Assembly (NCBI GenBank): GCA_029856125.1
Contig: JAHQWJ010000062.1
Coordinates: forward strand, 1 to 64,000
Length of the DNA stretch: 64,000 bases
Direction of reading: 5' to 3'
Source of the DNA: Promethearchaeia archaeon
Lineage (GTDB): Archaea; Asgardarchaeota; Lokiarchaeia; Sigyniarchaeales; SOKP01
Shown here: positions 6,301 to 59,316 of the stretch, one piece after another
Layout of the letters: each line of letters begins with the position of its first letter
Numbering within the stretch: position 1 is the stretch's first letter
Translations under genes and position numbers: made by a program
Notes under the pieces: model-generated
Told to the model about the DNA's origin: nothing
Database searches by the model: none
The model's input: only the letters and a program-made list of their open reading frames with translations

Positions 6301-8637
6301 GTATCAAATAAAGAAGACTTTATATCCCACCCGCTTTTAAAGGAAAACTTTGTTCTGAGGAGAGCATACCAAGAAAATATTTTTATAAATTGCCTTAATA
6401 CAAACTGTTTAGTTGTCATTCCGACGGGATTAGGAAAAACAATAATTGCTTTAATGTTAGCTATACACAGATTATCAGAAACGCCTAATTCTAAAATTAT
6501 CTTCTTAGCTCCAACCAAGCCACTTGTAAATCAACATTATAAATCTTTTTTAGATTTAACGGTTATTCCTGAGGATAACTTAAAAGTAATTACTGGAACC
6601 ACATCTCCAGAAAAAAGGAGAGAGATATGGAAGGATTTGGAAATTGCTTTTATGACACCACAGGTACTTCAAAATGATATTATATCCAATCAATACTCAT
6701 TAGAGAATGTAGCATTAATCATTTTTGATGAATGTCATCGGAGTGTAGGAGATTATGCATATTGTTTTATTGCTAAGAAGTATGTAGAAACCGCTAAGAA
6801 TTGTCAAGTTTTAGGGCTTACCGCAAGTCCAGGATCTACGGAAGAGAAGATTAACGAAATAAAAAAGAATTTATTCATTGACCGTGTCGAAATTAGAACA
6901 GAACAAGATTCAGATGTGAAACCTTACATCTATAAGGTCGATAAAGAATGGATAAAGGTTAAGCTTCCAAGTGAATTTATGGACATCAAAATAATAATAA
7001 CAGAGAAATTAAGAACAATTTATAAATGGTTAAAACAACAAGAATTACTAAATTCGTCAGATATCACTAAGGTTACTAGAAAAGATTTGCTTGCGTTAGA
7101 CAAAGTAATTAATGGAAGAATTTCATCTGCAAGAACAGATGAGGAGAAGTTTCAATTATTTAGTGCGAAAAAATCTATAGCAAATGCGATAAGATTATCA
7201 CATATGGATGAGCTTATTGAGACTCAAGGAGTAAGCGCATTAGATGATTACATGAGAAAAAATATTAAAAAGATAAAACAAAACACAGCAAATAAATCAC
7301 TAAAAGAACTTTTTGGAGATTCTGACATAAAGCGCGCTCTTAGGTTAATTGAAACTAGCAAACAAAAAGGTATTGTTCATCCCAAACTAGAAGAACTTGC
7401 GGGAGTTTTACATGATCAGATCATTGAAAATGAAGACTCGAGAATATTAGTATTTTGTCATTTTAGAGACTCAGTCAACAATATAGTCAAATTTATTGAA
7501 AGAGACGAGGTTATAAGGGCTCATAAATTCGTAGGACAAGCTAGTAAATCTCTAGATAAAGGTCTAACTCAAAAAAAACAAATACAACTACTTGAAGACT
7601 TCAAAGAAGGAATTTATAACACATTAATTGCTACAAGTGTTGGAGAAGAAGGTTTAGATATAGCAGAATGCGATTTAGTAATATTTTATGACATCGTACC
7701 AAGTGCTGTACGTTCTATTCAGCGTCGTGGAAGAACCGGGAGAAAAAAGGAAGGAAAGGTTTTGTTATTAATGGCTGAAGGTACTCGCGATGAAGGATAT
7801 TTTTGGGCTGAAAAAGCTAAGGAACGGGTTATGAATCAAAGCTTAAAAAAGATGAAAGATAATGATTCAAGTTTGAAAGCGGGGCAATCAAACCTTTTAA
7901 ATTTTATAAAAGAAGACGAAGACAGCAAGGATTCTAGTAATTTTAAAAATACATCAGATATATCGTCTATCCAGAAGATCGAAGGTGCTCAGGATTACAC
8001 AATTATTTGTGATAATAGAGAGACAGCCTCTGCTGTTGTTAGAGCATTATCCCTTATGGGAGTTAGTTTAGAACTAAAACAATTACCTGTTGCAGACTAT
8101 ATACTTTCAGAAAGAGTTGGGATTGAAAGAAAATCAGCACAAGATTTTAACGATTCCGTCAAAGATGGGAGATTATTTAACGAGCTATTTGAGTTAAAAA
8201 ACAATTTTGTCAGACCCATATTAATATTAGAAGGAGACCCTTTTATAAATTCAAATATTAACCAAAACGCACTCTACGGTGCGATTACATCAATAATTTT
8301 GAATTTAGGAATTACTATATATAAAACAGACAATCCGTCTGACTCAGCAATGTTTATTTATCAGCTTGCTAAGAAAGAACAATCAGACTCTAAAAAGGAA
8401 TTTAAATTAAGATTTGACAAGAAACCAATAGAAATTACTAGTTTATTAGAATACATCGTTGCAGGTATTCCGGGTATAAACGCTCTTAGAGCTAAAAACT
8501 TACTTATGGAATTAGAATCGCTTCAAAAGATTTTTAATGCAGACATTGGGGATTTAATGAGTGTTGAAAATATAGGAAAGAAAATTGCTCAAGAAATATA
8601 TAAGCTAAGTAGATTTAAATACCAAAATAACCCCTAA
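6301..8637 (+). CDS. hef: Hef/FANCM-like DEAH helicase fused to ERCC4/XPF nuclease and HhH
   Basis: ISHPLL, Q motif RAYQ and Walker A PTGLGKT lie in frame upstream of the ATG at 6454. Also DECH, LTASPG, QRRGRTGR, nuclease ERKS..DF, and a PIP-like QSNLLNF. Start codon uncertain (non-canonical). Confidence 0.92.
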   Translation, partial: VSNKEDFISHPLLKENFVLRRAYQENIFINCLNTNCLVVIPTGLGKTIIALMLAIHRLSETPNSKIIFLAPTKPLVNQHYKSFLDLTVIPEDNLKVITGTTSPEKRREIWKDLEIAFMTPQVLQNDIISNQYSLENVALIIFDECHRSVGDYAYCFIAKKYVETAKNCQVLGLTASPGSTEEKINEIKKNLFIDRVEIRTEQDSDVKPYIYKVDKEWIKVKLPSEFMDIKIIITEKLRTIYKWLKQQELLNSSDITKVTRKDLLALDKVINGRISSARTDEEKFQLFSAKKSIANAIRLSHMDELIETQGVSALDDYMRKNIKKIKQNTANKSLKELFGDSDIKRALRLIETSKQKGIVHPKLEELAGVLHDQIIENEDSRILVFCHFRDSVNNIVKFIERDEVIRAHKFVGQASKSLDKGLTQKKQIQLLEDFKEGIYNTLIATSVGEEGLDIAECDLVIFYDIVPSAVRSIQRRGRTGRKKEGKVLLLMAEGTRDEGYFWAEKAKERVMNQSLKKMKDNDSSLKAGQSNLLNFIKEDEDSKDSSNFKNTSDISSIQKIEGAQDYTIICDNRETASAVVRALSLMGVSLELKQLPVADYILSERVGIERKSAQDFNDSVKDGRLFNELFELKNNFVRPILILEGDPFINSNINQNALYGAITSIILNLGITIYKTDNPSDSAMFIYQLAKKEQSDSKKEFKLRFDKKPIEITSLLEYIVAGIPGINALRAKNLLMELESLQKIFNADIGDLMSVENIGKKIAQEIYKLSRFKYQNNP

Positions 8638-8655
8638 ATTGGGTATGCTTAGTAT

Positions 8656-9963
8656 TTAAGCTAAGTGTTTAATCTTTTTAACACCTTGACCTATTCTTTT
8701 TATGATCTCTTCGATTTCTTCCTCTTTTACGATTAATGGGGGCATCATTATGAGCGTATCCTTTTTGTTTCCGCAATAATTTTGTAGAACGCCTTCTTTT
8801 ATTATAGAAAGCATAGCCAATTGCCCGAATGTTTCGTTAGTAAACTCCATACCCCACATTAGGCCTCTCCCTCTTACTTCTTTTATTAGTTCAGAATTAT
8901 CATCGGCAATTTCTTCTAGACCACTACCAAATAATTTTCCCATTTCTTTTACATGGTTTAAAAACTCAGGGTCAGATTGTATATCTAACATCTCACAAGC
9001 AACCACACAACCTAAATCGGAACCACCTGTTGTAGAAATATGAATGAATGGGTCGTCTTTAAACACCGCTTTCTCAATAAATGGTTTATAACTGCAAGTA
9101 GAAATTGGATAAATTCCCCCACTCATACCTTTTCCTAAAACCATAAAATCAGGGATAACTTTTTCTTTTTCATAAAGACCGCCGTATATAGCCCAAAAAT
9201 GACCAGTACGTCCAAGTCCTACTTGAACTTCATCAATTATCATCATAGCTCCATGATCATTGCATAATTCTCGAACTTCTGAAAAATATCCTTCTTGAGC
9301 GATTAATACTCCCCCCGTTGCTGGAATTGTTTCCAGAATGACGCACGCAACATCTTCCGATATGGTTTTTTTCAAGGCATCACCATCACCAAAAGGAACT
9401 TGCTTAAAATCAGGGAGATTCCAAAGGAATTTTTCTTTAAAGGCAGTATCTCCAGTTGCTAAGGCAAAACCGGTATGGCCATGATACCCTCCAATTGCTG
9501 AGATGCATTTTTTCCGTTTCGTATACGCTCTTGAAAATTTAATAGCAGTATCAACTGCTTCACCACCACTAACTCCAAAGGTAGTCTTAGTAATTCCTGG
9601 TGGCATAAGCTCTGCTAATTTTTCTCCTAATATAGCTCTCCATTCTGATAATTGTAGGTGATCACCTATGTCTAATCCGCTATCTAAAGCGTCCTTAAGG
9701 ATTTGCACAATTTTTCGGTTACCATGACCTAAATTATATACACCTCCGCATGTGTGGCAATTGTAAAGTTCCATTGGTGGATCGGTGGGTTTTGGTCCTT
9801 CCAAGGTATTAATCTTAACACCCCACCTCGTACCAGGGATAACTCCAATACCTGCTCCTTTAAAAAAGCGAACTTTTGGTGAATTCACATGCTTTGCGTA
9901 TAATTTCAGTAGTTCTTTCTGTGACAAAGTTCCAAAAAACTTCTTATCTGAAACATTTTTCAT
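8656..9963 (-). CDS. Class III PLP aminotransferase (ornithine/putrescine-like)
   Basis: SGGEAVD, YHGHT, DEVQVGLGRTG, LGKG (PLP lysine) and EVRGRGLM. Confidence 0.9.
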   Translation of the reverse strand: MKNVSDKKFFGTLSQKELLKLYAKHVNSPKVRFFKGAGIGVIPGTRWGVKINTLEGPKPTDPPMELYNCHTCGGVYNLGHGNRKIVQILKDALDSGLDIGDHLQLSEWRAILGEKLAELMPPGITKTTFGVSGGEAVDTAIKFSRAYTKRKKCISAIGGYHGHTGFALATGDTAFKEKFLWNLPDFKQVPFGDGDALKKTISEDVACVILETIPATGGVLIAQEGYFSEVRELCNDHGAMMIIDEVQVGLGRTGHFWAIYGGLYEKEKVIPDFMVLGKGMSGGIYPISTCSYKPFIEKAVFKDDPFIHISTTGGSDLGCVVACEMLDIQSDPEFLNHVKEMGKLFGSGLEEIADDNSELIKEVRGRGLMWGMEFTNETFGQLAMLSIIKEGVLQNYCGNKKDTLIMMPPLIVKEEEIEEIIKRIGQGVKKIKHLA

Positions 9964-10169
9964 GATTTTACAGAATTTTTTTTTCCATTAAAATATTTAT
10001 AATATTTAATTTACGAATAAGAGAATTTTCCTTCTGTAAAAAATGACAGAGTTAATCTAAAAACAATTAGTGAATATTAATATCAAAAATTTTATGATTA
10101 AAGATTAATATTTTTATTTTAGTAGTAATATAATTAGAATGTTATTAAAAAAATATGATGTGATTTACC

Positions 10170-10760
10170 ATAATCAAATTCAAAGTAATCGTAGCTGGGG
10201 CTAAAAATGTCGGAAAAACGTCTCTCATAAGGCGATATGCAACAGGAAAATTTGATAAATCAACTCTATCAACGATTGGAGTAGATTTTGAAACAAAGAA
10301 AGTAGTAGTTGATGATACTGAGATTCTCTTAAATATTTGGGATTTCGCTGGAGAGAAAAAGTTTCGACTTCTACTTCCCTCATACGTATCGGGAGCTTCT
10401 GGTGCTTTAATGCTTTATGATATAACAAATAAAGATTCTTTAGAAGACCTTCATGATTGGGTAAAAACTATTAGTTCTGTTCCAAATTACCCTAAAACTA
10501 AGCTACTGATTGAGGCAAAAATTGACTTAGAAAACCAGAGAGAAGTATCTCATGATGACGCTAAAGCCTTATTTGACAAATACAAATTTCAAGGAGACAT
10601 CCATGGTGTTTCATCAAAGACGGGAGAAAATGTCGAAAATGTTTTTGAGACACTTGGAAGAGAGATTATCAAGAATTCTTTAAAAAAATGTACTAGTTGC
10701 GACAAGTTTTATCCTTTAGAGCTTAAGTATTGTCAATATTGTGGTCAGAAAACACGTTAA
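10170..10760 (+). CDS. Rab-like small GTPase with C-terminal zinc ribbon
   Basis: Frame extends upstream of the ORF-track start: G1 GAKNVGKT, G2 TIGVDF, G3 WDFAGE, G4 EAKID, G5 SSKTG; C-terminal CTSC..CQYC. Start probably ATA 10170. Confidence 0.9.
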   Translation: MIKFKVIVAGAKNVGKTSLIRRYATGKFDKSTLSTIGVDFETKKVVVDDTEILLNIWDFAGEKKFRLLLPSYVSGASGALMLYDITNKDSLEDLHDWVKTISSVPNYPKTKLLIEAKIDLENQREVSHDDAKALFDKYKFQGDIHGVSSKTGENVENVFETLGREIIKNSLKKCTSCDKFYPLELKYCQYCGQKTR

Positions 10761-10867
10761 TTCTGTTAATTGATTATATTCAAATATAAGGATTGTAGAA
10801 TCTATATCTTTTTAAAAAATAAAACGCTTATCAAAAATAATATTCTAAGAAATATAGGTAATTTAAC

Positions 10868-11938
10868 TTGAAATACGATTTAAATGATGACATCAACGAA
10901 ATCTTAAAGCGTTTAAAAGACGATGAAATTTCTTTTCATGGTAAAAAAATTTTAGTTACAGGAGGAGCGGGTTTCTTAGGTTCATGGGTTTGTGATGTAT
11001 TAGTTAAGCAAGGAGCCTATTGTATCTGTTTAGATAACCTTTCTTCAGGAAGATTTGAAAATATCTCACATTTAATGGATAAGGATAATTTTCGCTTTAT
11101 AAATCACGATATTTCTAAACCAGTATTTTTTGGGTTCACACATCATCCAAATGGAATGTGTATCGGCGATATTAAAAGAATCGACATTGTTATGCATATG
11201 GCAAGTAGAGCGTCTCCGTTTGAGTTTAGTAAATTTCCAATACCCATATTAAAAAGTAATACTTTAGGGACCATGAATGCTCTGGGAATTGCAAAAGCTC
11301 ATAATGCCATATTTTTTTATACGAGCACCTCTGAGGTTTATGGGAACCCTCCCGATGATGTTATCCCAACATCTGAAGAATATTTTGGGCATGTTAACCC
11401 TGTTGGCCCCAGAAGTTGCTACGACGAATCTAAGAGAGCCGGAGAAGCTTTTGTTAAAGCTTACGAGCTCCAACATGGTATTAAAACAAAAATAGTTCGA
11501 ATTTTTAATACTTCTGGTCCCAGGATCCGATCCGGTCCGGAATTTGGTAGAGTTATCCCTAACTTTATCCATCAAGCGTTAAAAAACGAAGAAATAACTA
11601 TTTTTGGTGATGGGTCACAAACAAGATCATTTATTTATGTTGTTGATGAGATTGAAGGACTCTTAAAAATTGTTTATAAAGACGAAGCGATTGGAGAGGT
11701 TATTAATTTAGGAAATAATAAAGAATACACTATCTTAGAATTGGCTAAAATTATCAAAGAATTATCCAATTCAGAATCAAAAATTACTTTTAAACCTCTA
11801 CCTATTGACGATCCAACAAGAAGATGTGCTGATTTAAAAAAAGCAAACAGAATCTTAAATTGGCAACCCTCGACTCCTCTGAAAGAGGGGTTATCGAAAA
11901 CTATAGCTTGGTTCAAAGATAATGTCAAAAATGGATAA
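10868..11938 (+). CDS. uxs: UDP-glucuronate decarboxylase (UDP-xylose synthase), extended SDR
   Basis: TGGAGFLG, ASRASP, STSEVYG, PRSCYDESKR, GDGSQTRSF and DDPTRR. Confidence 0.88.
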   Translation: MKYDLNDDINEILKRLKDDEISFHGKKILVTGGAGFLGSWVCDVLVKQGAYCICLDNLSSGRFENISHLMDKDNFRFINHDISKPVFFGFTHHPNGMCIGDIKRIDIVMHMASRASPFEFSKFPIPILKSNTLGTMNALGIAKAHNAIFFYTSTSEVYGNPPDDVIPTSEEYFGHVNPVGPRSCYDESKRAGEAFVKAYELQHGIKTKIVRIFNTSGPRIRSGPEFGRVIPNFIHQALKNEEITIFGDGSQTRSFIYVVDEIEGLLKIVYKDEAIGEVINLGNNKEYTILELAKIIKELSNSESKITFKPLPIDDPTRRCADLKKANRILNWQPSTPLKEGLSKTIAWFKDNVKNG

Positions 11939-12446
11939 TACAAAAAATCTTAATAGTTTAAAAAAAAATTATAAAGAATTTGATAAAATCCTAAAAATTC
12001 TCTTAATTATTGGTATAATCATTATATCTGGGTTCATAATTTACGTCTTTTTAACTCCGAAACCGGGTTATTGGTATCTCGGTATTTTGAATTCTGACAA
12101 AAAAGCAGAAAATTACCCTACAGAAGCTGCTGTTGATGCAAATATTACTTTTTATATTTCTGTTGGAAATTATTTAAATCGAGATTTTTCATTCCAAATA
12201 GAAATTTTAAAGGGAGATAACGATACGATACTAAGCTCATCACCTTCGTTAAACGCAATCTCCTTTGTAAATTCATCGACAATTACTTTACAACATAGAG
12301 CAGAATGGGTTTCAAGTGCATTTAATGTTTCTTTTTCAGAGCCGGGGGTTAACTTATCAATAATCGCAGAACTATGGGAAATCCCATCTGTAGGAGTTAG
12401 AAGATTTTATGATGTTGTATATATAAGATTAAATAGGACTTCCTAA
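11922..12446 (+). CDS. DUF1616-like membrane-anchored protein
   Basis: N-terminal TM helix, then LGILN...KAENYPT and a beta-rich domain; overlaps the uxs stop. Confidence 0.6.
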   Translation: MSKMDNTKNLNSLKKNYKEFDKILKILLIIGIIIISGFIIYVFLTPKPGYWYLGILNSDKKAENYPTEAAVDANITFYISVGNYLNRDFSFQIEILKGDNDTILSSSPSLNAISFVNSSTITLQHRAEWVSSAFNVSFSEPGVNLSIIAELWEIPSVGVRRFYDVVYIRLNRTS

Positions 12447-13819
12447 CTCTGGGCTCCTATTATTTGAACCTTATCAATTTTTACATAGGGTGCGGAGTAA
12501 GGTCCGTAAATCTTATATTCCTTTGATATGGAAGTTATATTTTCAAATAAATCTAATAGGTTTATACCGAACATGGTCTCATTTAAAGCGTGTTTTATTT
12601 CTCCATTTTGTATCAAATTACCTTGCGAAATCAAACCTGAAAAATCACCAGTTGCAATATTAGGAGAGTCTGCGGTTGAGTTTAACAAAATTCCTTCTTT
12701 CACATTTTGTATTAATTCATCTTTTAGTGTGATTCCAGGTTGAAAAACTAAATTCGATATTCCTATTGAAGGAATGGAGCTAAACGATCTTCTTGACGCA
12801 TTTCCAGTGCTTTCAACATTCTCCTTTCCGGCGGTATAACTGTTGTGCAACAATCCTGATTGCAGAAATTGTCCATGTTCGATAATATTTTTATTCCTAC
12901 AAGGAAAACCTTCGCCATCAAAAATATTAGAGCCAACTCTACCATTAATTAGGGCGTTATCATCTATATTTATCAAATCTGAACCGATCTTTTTACCTCT
13001 TTTGCCAACCAAAAAACTTCGTTTATATTGGTACGTCTCTGCATTTATTGCAGATGCAATTGGATTTAATATAAGATTTATTGTCCCCCTAGGAGAAAGG
13101 ATCACTTGCATTTTTTTTGTTTTGATCTTTTTTCTATGTAGATTTCTCTTAGCATTTTTTAGCGCTTCCTCTGCAGTTTTTGTTCCATCAATATCAACTA
13201 GCTTTCTTCTCATTTGAGATTCGTATCCATTTGAAACTTCTCCATTAATCGCATCTTTCACAATCATGTTTGACGATATATTAAAATAAGTCTCCTCTCC
13301 ACTTACCTCAACACCGTTCGAGTTGAAAACATAAGAAAGATTGCTATTAGCTGTAAAATCCCCAGATTGTGATATTGCTTGGTCATCTTCAGTACAAGTT
13401 TTTATCAAGTCTTTAACATATTCTATTGCATCTTCGATTGATAAGTTCTTTATGCTTCTGTCGTATAACCCTTCAACCACGGGGTAAGGTTTTAATTTTT
13501 CAGGCAAATTTTTAAAATCTGGATCCGGAGTTCCAACACGCATCATTTTGATGGCATTTTTAACAATTTTTTCTACAACATTTTTTTTTAATATGTTTGT
13601 AAATGCGAACCCAATGGACCCATTTTTTCGATATACTCTGATTGAAATTCCATGGTTTCCCCCAATTTCGCTATATTTTACCGAATTTTCCTCTACTTCG
13701 ATATTCAGATATTCACTTTTTCCGATAAAAACTTCAGCACATTTATAATTTGAATAATTTTTTTCTGCAATTTTAATAGCAAATTTAGCAAGCTCAAATA
13801 TGTCTATATCCTCATACAT
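12443..13819 (-). CDS. pmbA: PmbA/TldE family protein
   Basis: FDGEG, STGNASR and TGDFS motifs; lacks HExxxH; abuts tldD. Confidence 0.88.
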   Translation of the reverse strand: MYEDIDIFELAKFAIKIAEKNYSNYKCAEVFIGKSEYLNIEVEENSVKYSEIGGNHGISIRVYRKNGSIGFAFTNILKKNVVEKIVKNAIKMMRVGTPDPDFKNLPEKLKPYPVVEGLYDRSIKNLSIEDAIEYVKDLIKTCTEDDQAISQSGDFTANSNLSYVFNSNGVEVSGEETYFNISSNMIVKDAINGEVSNGYESQMRRKLVDIDGTKTAEEALKNAKRNLHRKKIKTKKMQVILSPRGTINLILNPIASAINAETYQYKRSFLVGKRGKKIGSDLINIDDNALINGRVGSNIFDGEGFPCRNKNIIEHGQFLQSGLLHNSYTAGKENVESTGNASRRSFSSIPSIGISNLVFQPGITLKDELIQNVKEGILLNSTADSPNIATGDFSGLISQGNLIQNGEIKHALNETMFGINLLDLFENITSISKEYKIYGPYSAPYVKIDKVQIIGAQS

Positions 13820-15271
13820 TTAATTTAAACCTCCCACCGTGATGTCATCAACTCTGATATATGGGCCACCATCGCAAACTCTAACGCTTTGACCTCCCTT
13901 TCCGCAAACACCGTCGCTGTAGCTAAATGATTTTTGATCACCTATCGCTGAAACCTTTTTTAGCACTTCGAGAATCATTCCCGACAACGCAACATCCCTC
14001 ATTAATTCCTTTCTTTCTCCATTTTCGATTTTATACGAGAACTTACACTTAAATTGAAAGTTTCCAGTAGTCGGATTAGTATAACCATACAAAAAATCTT
14101 CGCAAAGAATCCCATTTTTCGTGTCTTGTATTAATTCTTCAATATTCCAATCTTTTGGTTCAATGTAAGTGAACCCCATTCGTACTTGAGGTTTAGCGGA
14201 ACTAGATGAAGCTCTCCCGTGACCGTTTGGGGGTAAATTCATTCTTGAAGATGTTTCTAAATTATGCAAGTAGTTTTTTAGTATTCCATTTTCAATAATT
14301 GTTGTTTTTTGGGATGGAATTCCTTCGTCATCTATAAAGTAGCTCCCAAATAACTCATAAGGAAGCCCTAGTTTTTTACCTTGTCCCATTGAAGGATCAT
14401 CGATCACATTGATATCTGGTAAAGCTATTCTTTTTCCTATTTTTTCTTTCAAAATACTTTCTTTACTTAAAACCAAATCAGCCTCACAAGCATGTCCAAG
14501 GGCTTCGTGAATTAAGGTTCCGGCTAGTTTAGGATCAGCAATAATGGTAAATTGTCCACCTATCGGAGATTTCGCATCTAGTAATTTAATCGATTCTTGG
14601 GCAGTTTTTTCGCTTAATTTTTCTGCTTTTTCTGTTAATACTATCTCAAATCCACCTAAACCTCCTACAGAATTAATAGATCTCTGGGTTATTCCTGCTT
14701 TTCGGGAATATACCATATTTAGTAATCGCAAATACGAAAGTTTTTGTTTAATTTTACTACCAAATGAACTGATAAAGATGTAATTGCTAACGCCATCCAT
14801 ATAAATTGTTCGCGTATTTGTTACTAACTTAGAAGAACCTGCGGCAATTTTTTCATGAGATTTTACTAATTTTATTTTTTCTTCGATACTTACATCCGAT
14901 AAGGGTAGTTTGCTGTCAATTTTGAAGCTTCTCTCTAATGGATCCCTTTCGGTTATTTTAAACTCATTTTTTAATAAGGATCGTGTTAATTTCGCCAGCT
15001 TTATTGATTTTAAGAAGCTAGATCTAATACTGTCCTTGTTAAGATCCTTGAAAACACTAAAACCCCATCCTCCATTTATAAAAGCTCTTATTCCACAATT
15101 TGTCATCTCATAAGAAGAAATCTCCGTACTCCTTTGATCTGTGAAATCTAAAGTCGTTCCTTCACTAACCGTTGCTCTAATATCCCAATATTCAACTTTA
15201 TCCCCCGCCTCTCGTAATAAATCTGCTACGAAAGCATTGTTAAACAGGCTTAATTCGTTATCTGTCTCCAT
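13820..15271 (-). CDS. tldD: TldD family metalloprotease
   Basis: IHEALGHACEAD zinc motif, DDEG, NGHGRA, CGKGGQ..DGGP. Start set at ATG 15271. Confidence 0.92.
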   Translation of the reverse strand: METDNELSLFNNAFVADLLREAGDKVEYWDIRATVSEGTTLDFTDQRSTEISSYEMTNCGIRAFINGGWGFSVFKDLNKDSIRSSFLKSIKLAKLTRSLLKNEFKITERDPLERSFKIDSKLPLSDVSIEEKIKLVKSHEKIAAGSSKLVTNTRTIYMDGVSNYIFISSFGSKIKQKLSYLRLLNMVYSRKAGITQRSINSVGGLGGFEIVLTEKAEKLSEKTAQESIKLLDAKSPIGGQFTIIADPKLAGTLIHEALGHACEADLVLSKESILKEKIGKRIALPDINVIDDPSMGQGKKLGLPYELFGSYFIDDEGIPSQKTTIIENGILKNYLHNLETSSRMNLPPNGHGRASSSSAKPQVRMGFTYIEPKDWNIEELIQDTKNGILCEDFLYGYTNPTTGNFQFKCKFSYKIENGERKELMRDVALSGMILEVLKKVSAIGDQKSFSYSDGVCGKGGQSVRVCDGGPYIRVDDITVGGLN

Positions 15272-16456: not shown

Positions 16457-16465
16457 AAAAACTGA

Positions 16466-19430: not shown

Positions 19431-19867
19431 TATTATGCTTTTGTAATACAAAATATATTTTTAGTAGTACATTTATTTTTTTTTTACCCTATTCTCCTAT
19501 GAAGAAAAGGAAATTAACTAATTTGAATATAAATATTTTTTTTTGAATTAATAATAGATATATCATAAGGGTATATATTTGGATTAAAAAAACTTCTCTT
19601 GAACCTTGGGAGGAATTATTTCCTTGATTCTGGTTCTTGATAATTCCGATATCTAAATATCGCACTAAATTTGCGACTTTGATCTTATTCGAGTTAAATT
19701 AACTAATTAATTATCGTGCTATCTTTTTACATAATTTTAAATAAAACTTTTACCACTAATTTTTTGAACTTTATTAACATTTTTTTAAAAGTATAATTTT
19801 CTTTTATGGTGAAAAACAGATATCGCTAGAACCGGAAAAATCAAATAATAAAGGAAATCCATCCACT

Positions 19868-20824
19868 ATGAATGACAATAATTCAAGAAGGGATAAATCA
19901 GAAGATAAACCTAATATGACCGAAGAGGAAATAGAAAACATTAATCTTGACGACGAAAAGATAAAGCGATACATGAAAAAGTACAAAGAAGAGAACGATA
20001 AATACGCAATTTGGAGAGGGGCGATAACAGAAGGTTTTAAAAAATGGTTAAAAGGCGAAAAAATCTATACGCGGGACAAGGAAAGAATATCTTTATATGT
20101 CGACGATAAGATTAAAGGAAATTGGCAAAAATTTATAAATAAAAACAAAGAATCGTTTCCTACTTTTTCAGAGTTAATAAGACAAAGTGTTAAGTCATTT
20201 ATGGAAGATTCGAGTAGAGTATCAAGTGAATTGTCTAAACTGAACCCGAGTACCCGATCTAACATCTCTCACGCCTTAAAGGAACCCCTAACGTCTATTA
20301 AAGGTTATTCTCAGTTACTTCTTGAAAGCGAAGAATACAATGATAAATTAAGTGAGCATGTTGAAGAAACAATAAAAAATATTTTCGATCAGAGTAATTT
20401 ATTAGAAAATATTATAAAGAATTTCTTAGACAATATTCAACCTGAAAGTACTCCCTACGATATTTTATTAATTGAAGACGATTTGCCAACTATCCGGTTA
20501 ATAACAAGCTATTTTGAAAGTAAGCATTATGTCTGTAAGGGAGTTATAAATGGGACAAAAGGCTTAGAGGAATTAAGAAGGGTGGTCCCAAAAGTTATAT
20601 TATTAGACATTATATTGCCTGATTTAAGCGGGTATGATATATGTCAGACTATAAAAACAGATAGTGCTTACAAAAAAATACCAGTTTACTTTCTAACAGC
20701 GATATCCGCATCAGAAATAAAAAAACGCTTAAATGAGACGCTAGCTGATGGATACATTCTTAAACCTTTTAACTTTTCTGATTTCAAAGTTATATTTGAA
20801 ATTTTAAATGGAAAAGTGAATTAA
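19868..20824 (+). CDS. RHH-like / HisKA / receiver-domain response regulator (paralog 1)
   Basis: RISLYV..W..F..TFSELIRQSV (RHH-like); SHALKEPLTSIKGYSQLL (HisKA); IEDD / LLDIILPD / LTA / KPF (receiver). May start at ATA 19820. Confidence 0.85.
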   Translation: MNDNNSRRDKSEDKPNMTEEEIENINLDDEKIKRYMKKYKEENDKYAIWRGAITEGFKKWLKGEKIYTRDKERISLYVDDKIKGNWQKFINKNKESFPTFSELIRQSVKSFMEDSSRVSSELSKLNPSTRSNISHALKEPLTSIKGYSQLLLESEEYNDKLSEHVEETIKNIFDQSNLLENIIKNFLDNIQPESTPYDILLIEDDLPTIRLITSYFESKHYVCKGVINGTKGLEELRRVVPKVILLDIILPDLSGYDICQTIKTDSAYKKIPVYFLTAISASEIKKRLNETLADGYILKPFNFSDFKVIFEILNGKVN

Positions 20825-21133
20825 TCTGAGTATATGTTAACTAAATGATCCCCATCAAGAGAAAGATAGTGATTTTTCTTTGAGTTTGTTAACTTTTAAA
20901 AAAAATAAGTTATAACTTAATTGGATTAAATTTATTTTTTGTGAAGAATTACTTTAAAGTATAGAATTAGTTTACAAAAAATAAAAATTTTTATAATAAG
21001 CAATATAATAATTTTAGATTTTTAAGGTTAAAATTACTCAGAAATAAATAAAATGAAATAGGTGTAAAAAATTCCTAACGAAAAAGAGAACGATAACAAT
21101 TCAAATGGTACGGAAAATCACACAAATCCAAAA

Positions 21134-22024
21134 ATGACTGACGAAGAAATAAATAATCTGGATTTGAATAGCGAACAAGCGAAGAAGTTAATGAGGGTGT
21201 ATGAAGAGACAACGGATAAATATGCTAATTGGCGTGGAAATATAACAGAAGGTTTTATGAAATGGCTTAAGGGAGAAAAAATATACGACAGAGAAAAAGA
21301 ACGCATTTCCTTGTATGTAGCAGACAAAACCAAAGAAGAGTGGAGCGAGTTTATTAAAACTCATAAAGATAAATATAACACCATTTCCAAACTTATACGA
21401 GAGAGTGTTAATTATTTTATTAAGCAAGATTCCACTTTAATCAATGAAGATCTGCATAAATTAGACAATCAGACTCTCACAAACATATCGCATGCTCTAA
21501 AGGAACCGTTAACATCAATCAAAGGATTTTCTCAACTATTGATTGAAAATTATCGTGATGAGATGGAAGAAAATGTTTTTAACACCATTCAAAATATATT
21601 TAATCAATCTTTGCTTTTAGAAAACAAAATTATCACCATTCTGGACAATATAAAAACAGAAACTTCTCAATACGACATATTGCTAATAGAAGATGACTTA
21701 GCTACTATTCGTTTATTAACAAGCTATTTTGAAAGCAAAGGCTTTTCCTGTAAGGGTGTAGTTAGTGGAACAAAAGGATTGGAAGAGCTAGCAAATAACC
21801 CACCTAAGTTGGTATTGCTTGATATTATTTTGCCCGATTATAGTGGATACGACATCTGCAAACGAATTAAAGCAAGTAAAGAGCTTCAAAACATTCCGAT
21901 TTATTTGTTAACTGCTATACCAGGTTCAGAAGTAGAAAAGAACCTCGAAGATAGTAATGCTGACGGTTATATTCTAAAACCATTTGACTTCTCTGATTTT
22001 GAAGTAATATTTCAATATTTATAG
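21134..22024 (+). CDS. RHH-like / HisKA / receiver-domain response regulator (paralog 2)
   Basis: Same motifs and domain order as 19868-20824, with long identical peptide blocks. May start at ATT 21071. Confidence 0.85.
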   Translation: MTDEEINNLDLNSEQAKKLMRVYEETTDKYANWRGNITEGFMKWLKGEKIYDREKERISLYVADKTKEEWSEFIKTHKDKYNTISKLIRESVNYFIKQDSTLINEDLHKLDNQTLTNISHALKEPLTSIKGFSQLLIENYRDEMEENVFNTIQNIFNQSLLLENKIITILDNIKTETSQYDILLIEDDLATIRLLTSYFESKGFSCKGVVSGTKGLEELANNPPKLVLLDIILPDYSGYDICKRIKASKELQNIPIYLLTAIPGSEVEKNLEDSNADGYILKPFDFSDFEVIFQYL

Positions 22025-22055: not shown

Positions 22056-22129
22056 CGGGCTATGAGGGAATCGAACCCCCGACCTGCCGGTTAAGAGCCG
22101 GATGCGCTACCTGACTGCGCTAATAGCCC
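22056..22129 (-). tRNA. tRNA-Lys(CTT)
   Basis: GGGCTAT...GCGCAGTCAGGTAGCGC...CCGG-CT-CTT-AA-CCGG...GGGGGTTCGATTCCCTC-ATAGCCC-G. Confidence 0.93.
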
Positions 22130-22154
22130 ATTGAGTATTACTTGCCATTTAAAA

Positions 22155-22255
22155 CGCACCTGGAGGGATTTGAACCCCCGAGCGCTTACGCGCACTGGCT
22201 TACTTGATCGTATTGTCTACTCAAGGCCAGCGTCTTACCACTAGGCTACAGGTGC
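22155..22255 (-). tRNA. tRNA-Ser(TGA) with canonical 37/38 intron (22201-22219)
   Basis: Acceptor GCACCTG/CAGGTGC, CTGGC-CT-TGA-G[19 nt]A-GCCAG, long variable arm, G73; CTTG/CAAG BHB helix. Confidence 0.9.
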
Positions 22256-23638: not shown

Positions 23639-23740
23639 GCAATCGTCGCTTAGCTTGGTAGAACGCTTAAGCGTGCTAAAAGCGCTGGATTGCTAATCCA
23701 GTGTCCAACGGACTCGAGGGTTCGAATCCCTCCGATTGCG
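23639..23740 (+). tRNA. tRNA-Ser(GCT) with D-arm intron (23662-23680)
   Basis: GCAATCG/CGATTGC-G; CTGGA-TT-GCT-AA-TCCAG; long variable arm. Removing 19 nt restores GCTTAGCTTGGTAGAGCG. Confidence 0.88.
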
Positions 23741-23763
23741 CTCTAATAATCTTCAAACAATAA

Positions 23764-47555: not shown

Positions 47556-47584
47556 TCATTTTAAAAAATAACTTTAATTTCTAC

Positions 47585-52647: not shown

Positions 52648-52739
52648 TGCATTCACTTCATAGGTCTTTACTTTAGATTTAAGTTAAAATACTCAATTTT
52701 ATATATTTAGAATGTTATAAATTTTTTAAATAAAATAGA

Positions 52740-53348
52740 TTGGTGGAAAAAATGGAAGAATCATATTCAAATTCTAACGAAATTTATCCTTCAAACCAAA
52801 GAGTAGTAGGAGATATGTTTTATATTTTTATCGTTATTTCTTGCTTAATTTGCATTACTGGAGGTATCTGGTCATTATTTGATTTTATCATGCCAACAGG
52901 GAAGTTAGAATCTTTCTTGGGATTAACATTAGGATACCAAATCGCAATCATTGCTGGAATTTTAGCAGTGTTGTTTTTTCTGTTAATATTTTTCTTCGGA
53001 TTATTCAAAAAAGGAAGAAGATGGGTGTTACACTTCATTTTCAAAGTGAGAGAAATTGAAGAAAAGTATAAAAATCGCGTAGATGTTAAAATTGCAGCTG
53101 GGGGCTTGTTAATAAGCATAATGGTAATTATTATAGGTATTGTGATAGCTATGATTCAAGAGATTTTGATTGCTCCTAGCCAAAGTTCGCCTTTTTCTTT
53201 GTTTTTAGCCTCGTTTTCAGCAGGTAATTGGATTTTATTCACGGGAATTTCGCTCTTTGCGATTTTAGCAGTCACCTTATTTATGATCTACTTTTGGAAA
53301 AATGGATACTATGTAATATTAAGAGTAATGGGAAAATTGGAGAAATAG
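52740..53348 (+). CDS. 4-TM membrane protein with internal duplication
   Basis: Two helical-hairpin units, each ending F/W-K-x-G...V/I-L. Confidence 0.7.
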   Translation: MVEKMEESYSNSNEIYPSNQRVVGDMFYIFIVISCLICITGGIWSLFDFIMPTGKLESFLGLTLGYQIAIIAGILAVLFFLLIFFFGLFKKGRRWVLHFIFKVREIEEKYKNRVDVKIAAGGLLISIMVIIIGIVIAMIQEILIAPSQSSPFSLFLASFSAGNWILFTGISLFAILAVTLFMIYFWKNGYYVILRVMGKLEK

Positions 53349-53458
53349 TGCCTAAATTTTATTTCATCCATTTTTTTTTATCTAATTTACTTTCTTTTTA
53401 AATCAGTAAATTCTGTCTCTTATCTATATTTATTAATATTTTTACTTATCTAAATTCA

Positions 53459-54985
53459 ATGTCTCTAAAGCTTGGTATAGTGTTTAACTTTCTTCAATTA
53501 CCTGACGTTTCAAAATATCCATTTGTAATAAATAAACGAACTGACGGAACTTTTGTTAAAAAAGGTTTATTTGTGTCTACAAAATCAATTGAAGGATATT
53601 TAATCGGCATAGTTGAGAAAATCGTGTTGTTAAACGAATATTTTTCCGATGCTTTAACAATTAAGGCTTATAATAACGAAAATAATCCAAACATTCTCAA
53701 AGGTTTATTTCCGAGTGATGATTTTGAATATGCAATAGCAATTGTTAGGAATTTAGGAATTATAGATTTCAAGGAATCTAGTGAATCTGAGATAAAAGCG
53801 ATTAAAAGAATGATGTATCCTGCAAGTCCGGGTAAGAAAGTATATTTGGTTGACGATGAAATTCTTAAGAGTTTTATAGGGCTTAACCAAAAGCAAGGGT
53901 TGAATTTGGGTAAAGTTAAGGTATCAAATATTGATGCGTATATTAATATGGATCGATTATTAAACAAACACTTTGCTATTCTCTCGATTTCAGGAGGTGG
54001 CAAAAGTTACCTTACATCAATTATTATTGAAGAGCTACTAACACGAGAAAAAACTTCTGGGACTCCTGCAATTGTAATGATTGATGTCCATGGAGAATAC
54101 AAGTACCTAAATAGTGTTACTAAAATAAAAAATAAGGTTAAGGTTATTGACACTTCGTATTTTCAAATCTCTGTCCCTAAATTGAACGCGTATGCTTTTA
54201 AAAAATATCAGGAGCAAATTTCTAATGTTCAGATAAGAGAATTATCTAAATATATTAAAAAATTAAGAAAAAGGGAAGATTTAAAGAACAAATTTACTCT
54301 TGATACCATTATAGAATTAATAGAAAAAGAAGAAGAGGGCGGCAAAAGCACCAAACAAGCTTTAATCGGATGGTTATCTGAGTTAGAACGGCTAAATCTT
54401 TTTGGACCACAAGAAAATCCTGTTATGAAAAATGTCCTCAATCAGGGTGAAATTTCTATTTTTAACCTTCAAAATGAAGTATCAATTCGTAAAAAACAAA
54501 TTATTGTTGATTATATATGTAATCAACTATTTTATTTAAGAAGAAAGAAAGAAATTCCTCCATTTCTGTTAATAATTGAAGAAGCACACCAATTCTGTCC
54601 CGAAGCGGCTCATTCTAAAGCATTATCAAAATATATTATTGAAACTATCGCTAGAGAAGGGAGGAAATTTATGGCTTGCTTATGTTTGATAAGCCAGCGA
54701 CCTAAAAAATTAAGTACGACCGCTTTATCTCAAACAAATTCAAAGTTAATTCTAAACATTAAAAATCCCTACGATTTAAAACATTTGATGGATAGCTCAG
54801 AAGCAATTACTAAAGACTACGCGGAAATGATCTCGAGTTTAGGCGTAGGTGAAATGTTATTGATGGGAAATGCTGTAAATTATCCTATTTTTGTAGATAT
54901 ACGAGAAAGAAAATTTAAATCTCCAACTGAACACACATCTTTAGCTCAAGAATGCATTAACTGGAAAAAAGTCCACTCAATTTAA
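53459..54985 (+). CDS. herA: HerA/DUF87-like ATPase
   Basis: KHFAILSISGGGKSY, IDVHGEY, IIEEAH.F.P, IAREGRKF, SQRP and SQ.N. Confidence 0.85.
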   Translation: MSLKLGIVFNFLQLPDVSKYPFVINKRTDGTFVKKGLFVSTKSIEGYLIGIVEKIVLLNEYFSDALTIKAYNNENNPNILKGLFPSDDFEYAIAIVRNLGIIDFKESSESEIKAIKRMMYPASPGKKVYLVDDEILKSFIGLNQKQGLNLGKVKVSNIDAYINMDRLLNKHFAILSISGGGKSYLTSIIIEELLTREKTSGTPAIVMIDVHGEYKYLNSVTKIKNKVKVIDTSYFQISVPKLNAYAFKKYQEQISNVQIRELSKYIKKLRKREDLKNKFTLDTIIELIEKEEEGGKSTKQALIGWLSELERLNLFGPQENPVMKNVLNQGEISIFNLQNEVSIRKKQIIVDYICNQLFYLRRKKEIPPFLLIIEEAHQFCPEAAHSKALSKYIIETIAREGRKFMACLCLISQRPKKLSTTALSQTNSKLILNIKNPYDLKHLMDSSEAITKDYAEMISSLGVGEMLLMGNAVNYPIFVDIRERKFKSPTEHTSLAQECINWKKVHSI

Positions 54986-55249
54986 CTCTTCCATTATTTC
55001 ACTTCTAATGTGTTGATTTCTTTTGTTCAGTACAATCATTTTTTTTGTTTTTGAAACCCTAAATACATTAATTATACTTCTACTTTCCAGCTTCATTAGG
55101 AGTTCTTCTAACATAAGTGTTTGAATAAATGAGAATTCCTTCTTTAATAATTCCTCTAAACGTTTATCTAAAATTTCGCCTTTATTTTTTATCAAAATAT
55201 CTATTAAAGAATTTACGATAGGTTTTTGATTCCATCTGTGACTTTCTAT
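54977..55249 (-). CDS. Small conserved-type winged-helix-like protein downstream of cdc48
   Basis: About 90 aa open frame from ATA 55249 after GGTG; LLMKLE.R.II.V pattern. Confidence 0.55.
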   Translation of the reverse strand: MESHRWNQKPIVNSLIDILIKNKGEILDKRLEELLKKEFSFIQTLMLEELLMKLESRSIINVFRVSKTKKMIVLNKRNQHIRSEIMEELN

Positions 55250-55334
55250 AATAATACACCTTTTACTAAATTTAAATTAGATTTTATTCGGTACAAAATA
55301 TATAATAATATCCTGCAAATTAATTTTTGGAATA

Positions 55335-57560
55335 TTATACAACCATCTGATCTTCTTTTGATTGTTGAATAATTCTACTTTTTAATTTTGCTCCAAAATC
55401 TTCGTACCACTTAATTATTTCTGGTGTAATACTCGGGTAAACCGACTCTGTTGCCGCTTTAAAGTGTTCCTCAGAAATTTTCCTTGCTCTCAAATTTTCT
55501 CTTAAAGCAATCATGCCAGCTTCACGACATAAAGTTTCTACATCTGCTCCAGAGAACCCATCTAGCTGCTTATTTAATCCATTTAAATCAATATTAGCTG
55601 CTAAAGGCATGCCTTTGGTAAAAATTTTTAATATTTTCTCTCTTTCATCTTCATCTGGAGCGGGAACGAGTAGTATCCTATCAATTCTTCCGGGTCTTAT
55701 TAAAGCAGGGTCTAAAATGTCGGGACGGTTTGTGGCAGCAATCACTATTATATCTTTTTTTACTTCTAATCCATCCAACTCAGTTAAAAATTGCGAGAGA
55801 ACTTTTTCTGAAACTCCTGAATCGGTAGTGTGTCTACCTCTACTTGGAGCTATCGAATCAAATTCATCAAAAAAAATAATACAGGGTGCTGCCATTTTAG
55901 CTTTTCGGAATACTTCACGAATTGCTTTTTCGCTTTCTCCAACATATTTTGATAACAATTCAGGTCCTTTAATTGATATAAAATTTGCTTTACTTTCGTT
56001 TGCTACTGCCCGAGCTAAAAGTGTCTTTCCACATCCAGGGGGGCCATAAAGTAAGATTCCTCTCGGAGGATTTATTCCCATTCGCTCGAATATTTTAGGA
56101 TGAGATAAAGGCCAGTCAACAGATTCTATCAACTTTTGCTTTAAATCTTCCAATCCACCTATCTGATCCCAGGTAACATTTGGTATCTCAACAAACACTT
56201 CTCTTATCCCAGATGGCATTACTTCTTTTAAAGCTTCCTCAAAATCAGTTTTGGTAACCTCTATTTGCTCAAGCAATTCTGGATCTATTATTTCTGAATC
56301 CAAATCAATCTGTGGGAGATATCTTCTAAGTGCTGCCATTGCTGCTTCTCGACATACAGCCATAATATCAGCCCCTACAAATCCATGAGTAATATTAGCA
56401 AATTCTTTTAAGGAAATTTTTTTGTCGAGAGGCATACTTCTCGTGTGAATTAGAAAAACTTCTCTTCTCCCTTTCTCGTTTGGAACTTTTATTTCAATTT
56501 CGCGATCGAATCTACCTGGGCGCCTTAATGCAGGATCCAAACTATTGGGACGATTTGTTGCACCGATTACTATTACTCGGCCCCTACTATGCAATCCATC
56601 CATTAATGCTAGTAATTGAGCTACAACTCTTCGTTCAACTTCTCCAGTAACGGTTTCTCTTTTAGGAGCAATAGCATCAATTTCATCAATAAAAATGATT
56701 GATGGACTTTTTTCTTCAGCCTCAATGAATATTTTACGCAGTTTTTTTTCTGACTCACCATAAAACTTGCTCATTATTTCTGGTCCATTAATTGAAATAA
56801 AATAGGCTTCGCTTTCGTTTGCTACGGCTTTAGCCAATAGTGTTTTACCACACCCTGGAGGACCTCTTAATAAAACTCCTTTTGGAGGGTCAATACCCAA
56901 ATGCTTAAATATTGAAGGGTGCCTTAATGGGAGTTCAACCATCTCTCTAACTCTTTGTATTTCACGATCTAAACCTCCAACCTCTTCATATGTAACATAG
57001 TCTGCCCCCCGCTCTTCATCTTCAGTAATGTTTTCACTTATATGAAGAACTGTCTCTGGTTTAATAGTACAAATTCCACTAGGTCTCATGCTTATGACCT
57101 TAAAAGTAATTTCTCGGCTGATGCCAATTGATATAAATATAAAATCATCAATAGCAACGGGATAGTTACTTAATTTTCGTTTAACGAAGGTTTCAAACCT
57201 TGGGTTCGATTTTATTTTAACACTAATTGGTGCTAGAACGATATTTTGAGCGGAATGAGTTATTACTTTTCTGATTTGAATCGTATCGTCTATGCTCGTT
57301 CCGATATTCTTTTTCAATCTAGAGTCAATGCGGATGATCCCTAAACCACTATCTTGAGGATAACTGGGCCAAGCTATTCCAGCACTCTCCTTCTTTCCAA
57401 CTAGGGCGATTACATCTCCAGTTTTTATATCTAACTTTTCCATGGTTTCCTGATCAATTCTAGCGATATTTCGACCAATATCCCTTTTTTTTGCTTCCTG
57501 TACTCTTAAAGATACTTTAAGATTATCCTTGCCATTTGAGTCGTTTTCTTTTAGTGACAT
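55335..57560 (-). CDS. cdc48: CDC48/VAT AAA+ ATPase
   Basis: N-domain plus two AAA modules (GPPGCGKT twice, [23 protein letters not shown]). Confidence 0.96.
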
Positions 57561-57647
57561 ATTAAGTCCTTTAATATTATTTTGAATATATACTAAAAAT
57601 ATAAAAGAATAATTTTGTAAAAATTTTTGCTTTTTTTAAGGTAATTT

Positions 57648-58703
57648 TTAATCTTTTTTGAAAAAACTATCTAATGAAACTTGAGTTTTGGAAGAAGTTT
57701 GTTTTTTTAAGCGTTCAATCGCGTTTTCTACCCTTTGCTTTGAGAAATTATGTTGCTCAATCAGAAGTTCTTCGACTTTTTCGTATTTACTTTTTTCCCA
57801 GATTATCTTTGGATAGTCTTTTTTTATATCTGGGTATAAAAATATCTCTTTTATTTGTTCAATAGTACTTTTTTCAATCTGAATTTCTATATTTCCAACT
57901 TTGATATTATTATTTATGATATTATCTAATGAACCGAATTTTCTAATAAGTTCGAGAGCTTTATGCTGTCCAATGCCTTTAATACCTGGATAGAAATCAG
58001 TTCCTATTAATATCCCCATTTCTATTAACTGTTCACGAGTTATGTTTAAATTTTCAAGAAATTTTGATAGGGAGATGTACTCAATATCAAGTGTAACGGT
58101 TGTGTTTCTAAGTTTTTTACTCCGGCTCACAGCAAAATTTCGTATTAGCCTTTCTCCACCAAAAAGTAATGTGTCGTAGTCTTGAGAAGCACATGCCCAA
58201 GCATCACCTTTTTCGACTAAAAAAGCAGATTGAGCTTCACCTTCAGAAGTAGCATCAACGATGGGTATTCCAAGATATTTTAATAATTTTTTACTCTCCT
58301 CTATCATGTTAGTATCCAATTTAGAAGTCATCTGGGCATATTTTTTAGCTTCTCCAAAATCTCCATCCTCTTGTGCTTTGATCATTTTGTTTTCTGCTGC
58401 TACTTTGATTTTTCTTCTTTCTAATATAGTCTCCTTCTTTAATTCAGAAGGAATTCCATCAAACACATAAATAGGCTTTATACCATGCTCTAAAAAATTA
58501 ATAGTTCTATAGAATAATCCAGATAGATGGGAAGTTATATTTCCATTGTAATCTTTTAATGGGGTTCCATCTCTTTGTCTAATAATTGCTAAAAACTGGT
58601 ATATCGTGTTAAAGGCATCGATAGCGATTTGTTTATTTAATAAATTATCAAAAGTTATAGTTCTCCTTACTTCTTTTACTAGTTCGTTTATTTTAGTGCC
58701 CAT
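57648..58703 (-). CDS. fen: Flap endonuclease 1
   Basis: IDAFN..YQFL..IRQ.DG, EGEAQ, SQDYD.LLFG, GTDF..G and PIP box QVSLDSFF. Confidence 0.96.
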   Translation of the reverse strand: MGTKINELVKEVRRTITFDNLLNKQIAIDAFNTIYQFLAIIRQRDGTPLKDYNGNITSHLSGLFYRTINFLEHGIKPIYVFDGIPSELKKETILERRKIKVAAENKMIKAQEDGDFGEAKKYAQMTSKLDTNMIEESKKLLKYLGIPIVDATSEGEAQSAFLVEKGDAWACASQDYDTLLFGGERLIRNFAVSRSKKLRNTTVTLDIEYISLSKFLENLNITREQLIEMGILIGTDFYPGIKGIGQHKALELIRKFGSLDNIINNNIKVGNIEIQIEKSTIEQIKEIFLYPDIKKDYPKIIWEKSKYEKVEELLIEQHNFSKQRVENAIERLKKQTSSKTQVSLDSFFKKD

Positions 58704-58761
58704 GGTTTATCTTTAATTTTATATCCAATAATTATCTAAGTTTTATTGTATATATTTTACA

Positions 58762-59316
58762 CTATAATTTTTCCTTTTTCAGTAGACGCTTCTTAAGATG
58801 CAATCCACACCTTTCACATTTTTTGTTTAAATCTTCTGGTTTTTGCAGGGTTTTGCAATAAGGGCAATAAACTTCGAAGTACATTTTCTCCTCTATTCCT
58901 TTTTTATATAAAGGTTTGAATCTAATTTTTAACATAGTACATAAATTTTCCATGGAATAATCATTAGTGTAAAGAATAATATCTTCCGGGTATGTGTCCA
59001 TTAATTCTAATACTAAACCCATTAAACTAACATCGTTCTTAGATAAAACCTTCGTAGTACCAGTTGATTTGGATTTTTCCTCAACTATATTTGAATATTT
59101 ATCCTGACTTTTCTTAACGACTAGTTTTCCCGTCTCAATTGCAAATTCTATTCTTCGTAAAATATTTCTGTTTCGATCGATGTATTTTGGTACTTTTAAT
59201 TCATCCACAATCTCAGGTGTTGTGAAAATTTTTTCTGGAAAGTAATTAAAATCTAAACCAGTTAAAAATATATTTGTATCAAAAACTAGAATTGATTTCT
59301 TCTTCTGGGCTGTCGT
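58762..59316 (-). CDS. nob1: Nob1 PIN-domain endonuclease with zinc ribbon
   Basis: VFDTN and TTPEIVDE lie in frame upstream of or across the ORF-track start; LS.ND, TNDYSMEN, CPYC..CERCG. Start non-canonical (ACG 59316 or ATT 59292). Confidence 0.85.
   Translation of the reverse strand, partial: TTAQKKKSILVFDTNIFLTGLDFNYFPEKIFTTPEIVDELKVPKYIDRNRNILRRIEFAIETGKLVVKKSQDKYSNIVEEKSKSTGTTKVLSKNDVSLMGLVLELMDTYPEDIILYTNDYSMENLCTMLKIRFKPLYKKGIEEKMYFEVYCPYCKTLQKPEDLNKKCERCGLHLKKRLLKKEKL

Follow-up and report, generated by a model that had tools for sequence, protein, structure and literature searches.

The closest described precedents for initiation at weak codons are bacterial. A Shine-Dalgarno (SD) sequence directs ribosomes to AUU or AUA in infC, the autoregulated gene for IF3, and in infC, cvfC1, ccpN and citZ of Staphylococcus aureus (PMC4705826, PMC13009471), where AUU and AUA give approximately 10% of the output of AUG (PMC13009471). 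Reporters in Escherichia coli initiate from all 64 codons (10.1101/063800), ribosome profiling of Haloferax contains putative sites at near-cognate codons (PMC7261190), and aIF1 of Sulfolobus solfataricus rejects AUU in vitro (PMC4705826). The AUU, AUA, AUC, GUG and GUA starts of Paramecium mitochondria are an annotation convention (PMC6505448), and TTA is listed as a start in NCBI table 4. Here we analyse a stretch of 64,000 nucleotides, referred to as the window, from a Promethearchaeia archaeon of the Lokiarchaeia (GCA_029856125.1, contig JAHQWJ010000062.1, positions 1 to 64,000 of the forward strand; C63:1-64000 in our numbering). An earlier reading of its sequence (the original prediction) had proposed that six genes, hef among them, start at ATA, ATT, ACG or GTA behind an SD motif. 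With a probability of roughly 0.7, we conclude that the genus of this archaeon uses SD-anchored initiation with a loose codon check, which would tolerate one mismatch to AUG and, in few genes, two.

The source genome is a metagenome assembly of 3.69 Mb, with 32.7% G+C and 6% contamination. Because its 16S rRNA ends in GGAUCACCUCCU, the core SD sequence is GGUGA(U). SD motifs precede 23% of ATG, 40% of TTG and 53% of GTG starts, and their spacing, counted from the SD, peaks at offsets 10-11 for TTG and GTG and at 9-14 for ATG. The six sites and their proposed starts are as follows.

6291-6296, forward strand: SD sequence of hef, GGTGAT, enclosing an in-frame GTG (6292-6294), with TGA at 6298-6300 closing that frame
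6301-8637, forward strand: hef, a Hef/FANCM-type helicase-nuclease of 778 codons (Pfam DEAD, Helicase_C, ERCC4), proposed start GTA, first ATG at 6454
10160-10164, forward strand: SD-like GTGAT of the Rab gene, including an in-frame TGA (10161-10163)
10170-10760, forward strand: Rab/Ras-family small GTPase, start ATA (from the Pfam Ras match and the aligned orthologue column)
19808-20824, forward strand: response-regulator/HisKA gene with GGTGA at 19808-19812, probable start ATA 19820, rival ATG 19868
21060-22024, forward strand: paralogous response-regulator gene with AGGTG at 21060-21064 and an in-frame TAA, start ATT 21071
54977-55261, reverse strand: conserved 90-codon gene without a match in a Pfam search, AGGTG at 55261-55257, start ATA 55249
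58762-59328, reverse strand: nob1 (PIN domain and zinc ribbon; Pfam PIN_6), AGGTG at 59328-59324 and an in-frame TAG, start ACG 59316

All six codons and their upstream motifs are found where they had been claimed, and at each site the GGTG(A) is complementary to the genome's own 16S 3' end. The gap between motif and codon, predicted to be 5-7 nt, measures 5, 6, 7, 7, 6 and 7 nt for hef, Rab, nob1, 19820, 21071 and 55249, respectively, which puts every codon at an offset of 10-12 nt, counted from the motif's first G, as for canonical starts. An in-frame stop stands directly before the hef GTA (TGA) and the nob1 ACG (TAG), one codon before the ATT at 21071 and two codons before the Rab ATA; the nob1 start lies within the final 38 nt of the gene upstream (59279-60235). 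Essential motifs do precede any ATG, GTG or TTG in the three genes for which this had been argued. In Hef the first such codon lies 51 codons in, past Walker A (Pfam DEAD match from residue 22); in Rab it lies 80 codons in, past the P-loop (Pfam Ras match from residue 5), and in Nob1 36 codons in, past the first PIN aspartate (PIN_6 match from residue 10). The same geometry was proposed for 19820, 21071 and 55249, and all three have the motif and spacing, but 19820 is the weaker case, with its rival ATG 16 codons downstream. The label 'near-cognate' fits five of the codons, each a single mismatch (one letter) away from AUG, but not the GTA of hef; this codon, with two mismatches, is the more exceptional element of the observation.

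A genome-wide census of SD spacing, which the original prediction had called for, indicates that the six sites are part of a broader pattern. A strong SD lies at the 5' end of 167 genes; a canonical codon is within reach in 99 of these, and 48 lack one over 12 codons. For those 48, the in-frame codon at offset 10-12 is ATT, ATA or ATC (ATH) in 30 genes against 4.4 expected (p ~1e-19) and GTA, GTC or GTT (GTH) in 7 against 1.8 expected (p 0.002), with ACG in 2 and CTG in 1, while control motifs gave no excess (2 versus 1.5 expected). When weaker motifs are included the excess is approximately 55 genes, a lower bound of 2% of genes. A mixture model estimates ATT at 4.2%, ATA at 2.9%, ATC at 0.7%, ACG at 0.6% and CTG at 0.3%, with 10% unassigned noise; its gain from these five near-cognate codons is 41 log units in the source genome and 18 in a second genome of the genus (G061, 1.2 Mb). 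These are far from a handful of genes per genome, with an excess of at least about 55 in the census and about 8% in the mixture model, and we estimate that single-mismatch SD-led starts account for some 2-8% of genes. An automatic orthologue screen for genes forced to use a non-canonical start returned 36 of 628, which is a rough upper figure, the screen being noisy and taking in conserved non-coding leaders and two SelD-like genes. The latter, in tandem at C24:2822 and C24:1320 (reverse strand), carry a G-stop-x-C-K-L motif, also conserved in G061, in which the stop is an in-frame TGA; this TGA is probably a selenocysteine codon and mimics a missing start in automatic screens. Two further genes, named by sequence resemblance, lack a canonical start: a uS4-like gene at C82:28861 (forward strand), which begins at ATC, and an A/V-ATPase subunit D-like gene at C135:53245 (forward strand).

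In orthologues the single-mismatch codons are either conserved or exchanged for canonical starts. For nob1, ACG directly follows TAG in 7 of 30 loci, those of the source genome's clade, and ATG occupies the same codon or one near it in the other 22 readable loci of the genus. The Rab column of 74 orthologues holds ATG in 50, ATA or ATT in 17 and TTG in 4, and the SD is present in 17 of 17 ATA/ATT orthologues versus 4 of 50 ATG orthologues, these figures being counts of sequences and not of independent events. The ATA/ATT rows are nevertheless spread over about five parts of the tree, and a near-identical sister pair differs in both start codon and SD. Such dependence of weak codons on the SD would argue against leaderless initiation. 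At 21071, the same codon reads ATG in one close relative (G010, locus L324), and conservation does not extend to the downstream ATG; at 55249, ATC stands behind an in-frame TGA in 6 relatives within the genus and ATG is found in the cultured P. syntrophicum MK-D1. At 19820, ATA or ATC behind GGTGA is kept in relatives, directly after TAA in 6 of them, and the downstream ATG is not conserved, having been lost in L324. The mixture model favoured that ATG over the ATA, so we regard ATA 19820 as a probable start. The genes at 19820-22024 (forward strand) are tandem response-regulator/HisKA paralogues, and further copies also lack a canonical start (C32:10064). Taken with the census, these columns make it very probable that single-mismatch starts are real in the source genome, as well as bearing out the proposal of relaxed, SD-positioned start selection.

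The evidence for two-mismatch starts is strongest at hef. Among 90 distinct orthologues GGTG(A/G)T is kept at a fixed distance in 78, and the codon at offset 10 in these is GTA in 33, ATA in 15, GTC in 12, TTA in 8, GTT in 7, TTT in 2 and ATT in 1. All are of the form D-T-N, yet none of the 78 has ATG, GTG or TTG there, even though GTG makes up 12% of the valine codons of the source genome. A stop directly precedes the codon in 14 of the 78 (TGA 7, TAA 6, TAG 1), and the tree requires 7 or more changes to account for them. No orthologue has a stop after the codon, and an F or Y at +6 is invariant. In the stop-bearing clades synonymous changes occur ahead of the next single-mismatch codon, and in one orthologue (L087) there is no single-mismatch codon before the conserved S-H-P-L motif. 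The sole orthologue with GTG at the start codon has a decayed SD, and 11 orthologues without the SD have ATG 1-3 codons upstream. These patterns are suggestive of a link between loss of the SD and a canonical start. Three side observations concern this alignment. The G031 hef locus (L072) has a 5' end near-identical to that of the source clade in a protein only 80% identical, possibly reflecting recombination or a chimeric assembly. A contig filed under Candidatus Nanopelagicaceae (L065, DATKTW010000106.1) carries a 91% identical Lokiarchaeia hef locus and is probably mis-binned. Several records titled Hodarchaeota, Thorarchaeota or Odinarchaeota nest inside the genus in the Hef tree.

Pop5, the protein of RNase P (C84:60762), behaves similarly. 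Its start column sits behind an in-frame TGA inside the SD and, across 19 genomes, reads ATG 2, GTG 4, ATA 5, ATC 3 and GTC 5; in G000, G003, G027 and G031 the stretch from the stop to the conserved R-H-R-Y motif holds no single-mismatch codon. The GTA, GTC and GTT of hef and pop5 differ from ATG at positions 1 and 3, and so fall outside the one-mismatch class. In the column of a RagA-like GTPase are found ATG, TTG, CTG, ACG, ATT, ATA, GTT (in three genomes, after a stop) and TTA (in the source genome), and since ACG occurs there it is the codon that is conserved and not the amino acid. In three genomes the family at C112:44497 has GTC or GTT following TGA; a paralogue carries ATG. We consider GUA, GUC and GUU starts likely to be genuine in the genus.

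A mechanism that would account for these patterns is as follows. A GGUGA-type SD would pair with the 16S tail and anchor the 30S subunit, so that the P site receives a single in-frame triplet at a distance of 10-12 nt from the first G. The codon-anticodon check of the normal initiator tRNA (CAU) may be loose in the genus, such that a strong SD permits one mismatch (AUU, AUA, AUC, ACG, CUG). Few genes would tolerate two, combining G:U or U:U at position 1 with an unpaired position 3 and keeping the central U (GUA, GUC, GUU and perhaps UUA); the penalties at positions 1 and 3 would each be tolerated, and occasionally both jointly, given a strong SD and central U pairing. Ribosomes would presumably start at all these codons with methionine, and aIF1, whose own gene starts at AUU, could set stringency by negative feedback in the manner of IF3 and eIF1. 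The sequences display the SD, the spacing, the closing stops, the exchange with ATG, GTG and TTG at the same codon and the co-occurrence of weak codon and SD.

The initiation machinery itself appears normal. The initiator tRNA is canonical (A1-U72, three G-C pairs, CAU anticodon), the P-site motifs of the 16S are intact, and aIF1, aIF1A, aIF2 alpha, beta and gamma and KsgA are all present with open frames. A fidelity-mutant state through loss of aIF1, KsgA or the three G-C pairs thus finds no missing or broken component in the source genome, and loss of KsgA is rejected as a cause. Inspection of aIF1 and aIF2 for fidelity substitutions, as the original prediction had suggested, returned none that explains the trait. 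In the genus the aIF1 gene lacks a canonical codon ahead of the zinc-binding cysteines and has an ATT start preceded by stops; its start is mostly ATG, TTG or GTG in the MK-D1 family, and ATA is probable in three genomes of the class. A fidelity-factor gene with a weak start is what autoregulation would call for, and the ATT parallels the AUU start of the IF3 gene and the poor context of the eIF1 start (PMC4705826). The basic loop of aIF1 is kept (R-K-W-G-K versus R-R-F-G-K in aIF1 of PDB 4mo0), and its loop 1 Y-to-W change is shared with the MK-D1 family and is rejected as the cause. In the source subclade aIF1 (C84:118611-118961, forward strand) has G-G-V, or G-G-A in G007, for an otherwise invariant G-G-T, together with a basic C-terminal extension, and several genus members have a second aIF1 paralogue. 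The G-G-V/G-G-A change is likewise rejected, the trait being genus-wide and found also where G-G-T is kept.

Several observations weigh against the preferred reading. No molecular cause for the trait was found, and in E. coli the output from codons that are not near-cognate is a mere 0.01-1% of that from AUG (10.1101/063800). The GTA/GTC/GTT/TTA class gains only +2.7 in the genome-wide mixture model versus +3.9 for control codons, and, lacking that gain, such starts can represent at most about 1% of genes. The GTT of C32:10064, the GTT of scpA and the TTA of eS28 are ambiguous, with ATT or ATC one codon upstream. The association of SD loss with a canonical start in Hef comes down to 2 independent pairs on well-supported branches, which is underpowered and not significant. 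The GTG inside the Hef SD is open and in frame in 64 of the 78 orthologues, and five other orthologues have ATG there. The eS28 gene (C12:49487, reverse strand) is without ATG, GTG or TTG in its whole frame; its TTA aligns with TTG, GTG or ATG of relatives, and ATC (-1) and ATA (+3) are alternatives.

Some of these points would be expected if only single-mismatch starts were used, with Hef begun at the GTG inside its SD in orthologues with an open frame and at the ATA at +7 in those where a stop closes it, and with the other GTN/TTA cases begun at a neighbouring ATT or ATC. The in-frame GTG is found in all 78 SD-bearing orthologues, ATH stands at -1 in 4 of 9 GTH/TTH candidates, and the two-mismatch codons have no genome-wide class signal. 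This explanation nevertheless seems unlikely to us, as stops at Hef -1 are not depleted (18%; 7 changes), synonymous changes and the invariant F/Y lie between stop and +7, and neither L087 nor Pop5 in its four genomes offers a single-mismatch codon ahead of the conserved motif. It is also conceivable, though doubtful, that the same starts arise because modification of C34 in the anticodon of the initiator tRNA frees position 3, and not through weak proofreading by aIF1. Such a modification (f5C) occurs in mitochondrial tRNA-Met, third-position variants dominate here (ATH, then GTH), and the ratio of GTH to ATH roughly tracks that of GTG to ATG; yet ACG and CTG starts, which would gain nothing from such a modification, also occur, and the tRNA gene is canonical.

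Recoding, whether by stop read-through from an upstream GTG, by frameshift from an out-of-frame ATG or TTG or by editing of the mRNA to a canonical codon, is very improbable. The source genome does read some TGA through in the two SelD-like genes, and out-of-frame ATG or TTG codons overlap some spacers. Against this, all three stops alternate with sense codons at Hef -1, where read-through or selenocysteine would call for one conserved stop, the out-of-frame ATG at C112:44497 is not conserved, and neither A-to-I nor C-to-U editing could repair ATT, ATC, GTT or GTC. Near C42:8936 (reverse strand) the G061 orthologue has two in-frame TGA in a conserved stretch where the source genome has CGA at both, and this open reading frame is possibly a recoded gene or else a shadow frame. 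Assembly errors or pseudogenes, which a partly contaminated metagenome assembly might invite, can largely be dismissed, as 6-8 species whose genomes were assembled independently share these codons, the frames are intact with 70-95% identity, and single-copy housekeeping genes (aIF1, Pop5, Nob1, eS28, uS4) are affected, which largely answers the objection that the original prediction had raised against itself.

Returning to SD-anchored initiation with a loose codon check, output from the weak starts is probably low, and the genus-wide avoidance of a canonical codon behind a strong Hef SD would be consistent with selection that keeps Hef scarce. Weak starts may also serve to tune expression, as had been proposed. 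On balance, and with less assurance than for the individual codons, we favour the view that the genus natively starts conserved single-copy genes at the two-mismatch codons GUA, GUC, GUU, UUA and perhaps UUU, with the start set almost wholly by SD position and the central U, stringency set by an AUU-initiated aIF1, and Hef under genus-wide selection for a weak start. The trait seems uneven within the class. In a small MK-D1 sample (0.4 Mb, 317 genes) ATH starts are estimated at 0% and ATH stands at 1 of 28 SD sites, which suggests such unevenness and makes cultured MK-D1 seem a poor test organism. The frequent TTG starts remarked on in the window are real (for example at 10868, 35662, 44604 and 44845), although the THUMP gene listed among them was not identified, and TTG use is ordinary in the source genome because its 9% genome-wide share equals that in MK-D1 and lies below the 13% of Bacillus subtilis (PMC4705826).

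Elsewhere in the window, a G+C-richer non-coding stretch with a tRNA-like 5' end lies upstream of hef (about 5985-6160, reverse strand); ARAGORN and Rfam did not recognise it, and it may be a tRNA with an intron or some other RNA. The window also contains three tRNA genes, at 22056-22255 (reverse strand) and 23639-23741 (forward strand), and introns are predicted in two of them.

If true, these findings mean that the start codons used naturally by a cellular organism include some that are more than one mismatch away from AUG. The organism belongs to the archaea most closely related to eukaryotes, and start selection in eukaryotes is the strictest known. The source genus and the MK-D1 family provide a natural comparison for finding which features of aIF1, aIF2 and the 30S subunit determine how faithfully start codons are chosen. 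There is also a practical consequence. Gene finders cut short the proteins whose genes very probably start at ATT, ATA, ATC or ACG or, in a few cases, at GTA, GTC or GTT, and the systematic N-terminal mis-annotation that had been predicted is exemplified by public gene calls that begin Hef at the ATG 51 codons in, giving a 727-aa protein without the Walker A motif. Asgard proteins used in studies of eukaryogenesis (small GTPases, Hef/FANCM, Nob1, Pop5, ribosomal proteins) are truncated or missed in public annotation.

We found no paper on this trait in Asgard archaea, subscription journals being outside the coverage of our search. Known archaeal SD-led initiation with aIF1 proofreading (PMC6237735, PMC7531240) shares with the source genus the anti-SD, canonical initiator tRNA, aIF1, aIF1A and aIF2, but its known starts are AUG, GUG and UUG. 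Moreover, reviews rate SD motifs as rare in Lokiarchaea on the basis of MK-D1, whereas the source genus uses the SD and needs it for weak starts. Mitochondrial alternative starts comprise the same codon set, GUA and UUA included; however, organelles are without such SD dependence, GUC and GUU are absent from the mitochondrial lists, and the present case is a cell with a full set of initiation factors. In E. coli and Haloferax, ribosomes can initiate weakly from codons of this kind, but those are background or alternative sites, whereas here such codons are apparently the only start of conserved single-copy genes. The closest likeness is to bacterial infC, in which a strong SD places a weak codon that is conserved between species and the fidelity factor's own gene is weakly started, as aIF1 is here at ATT. 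The differences are that four sites are known in S. aureus against at least 50-60 genes here, that ACG and two-mismatch codons are included, and that the machinery is the archaeal one of aIF1 and aIF2. The mode thus resembles infC-type SD-directed initiation, differing in scale and, for Hef and Pop5, in going beyond a single mismatch.

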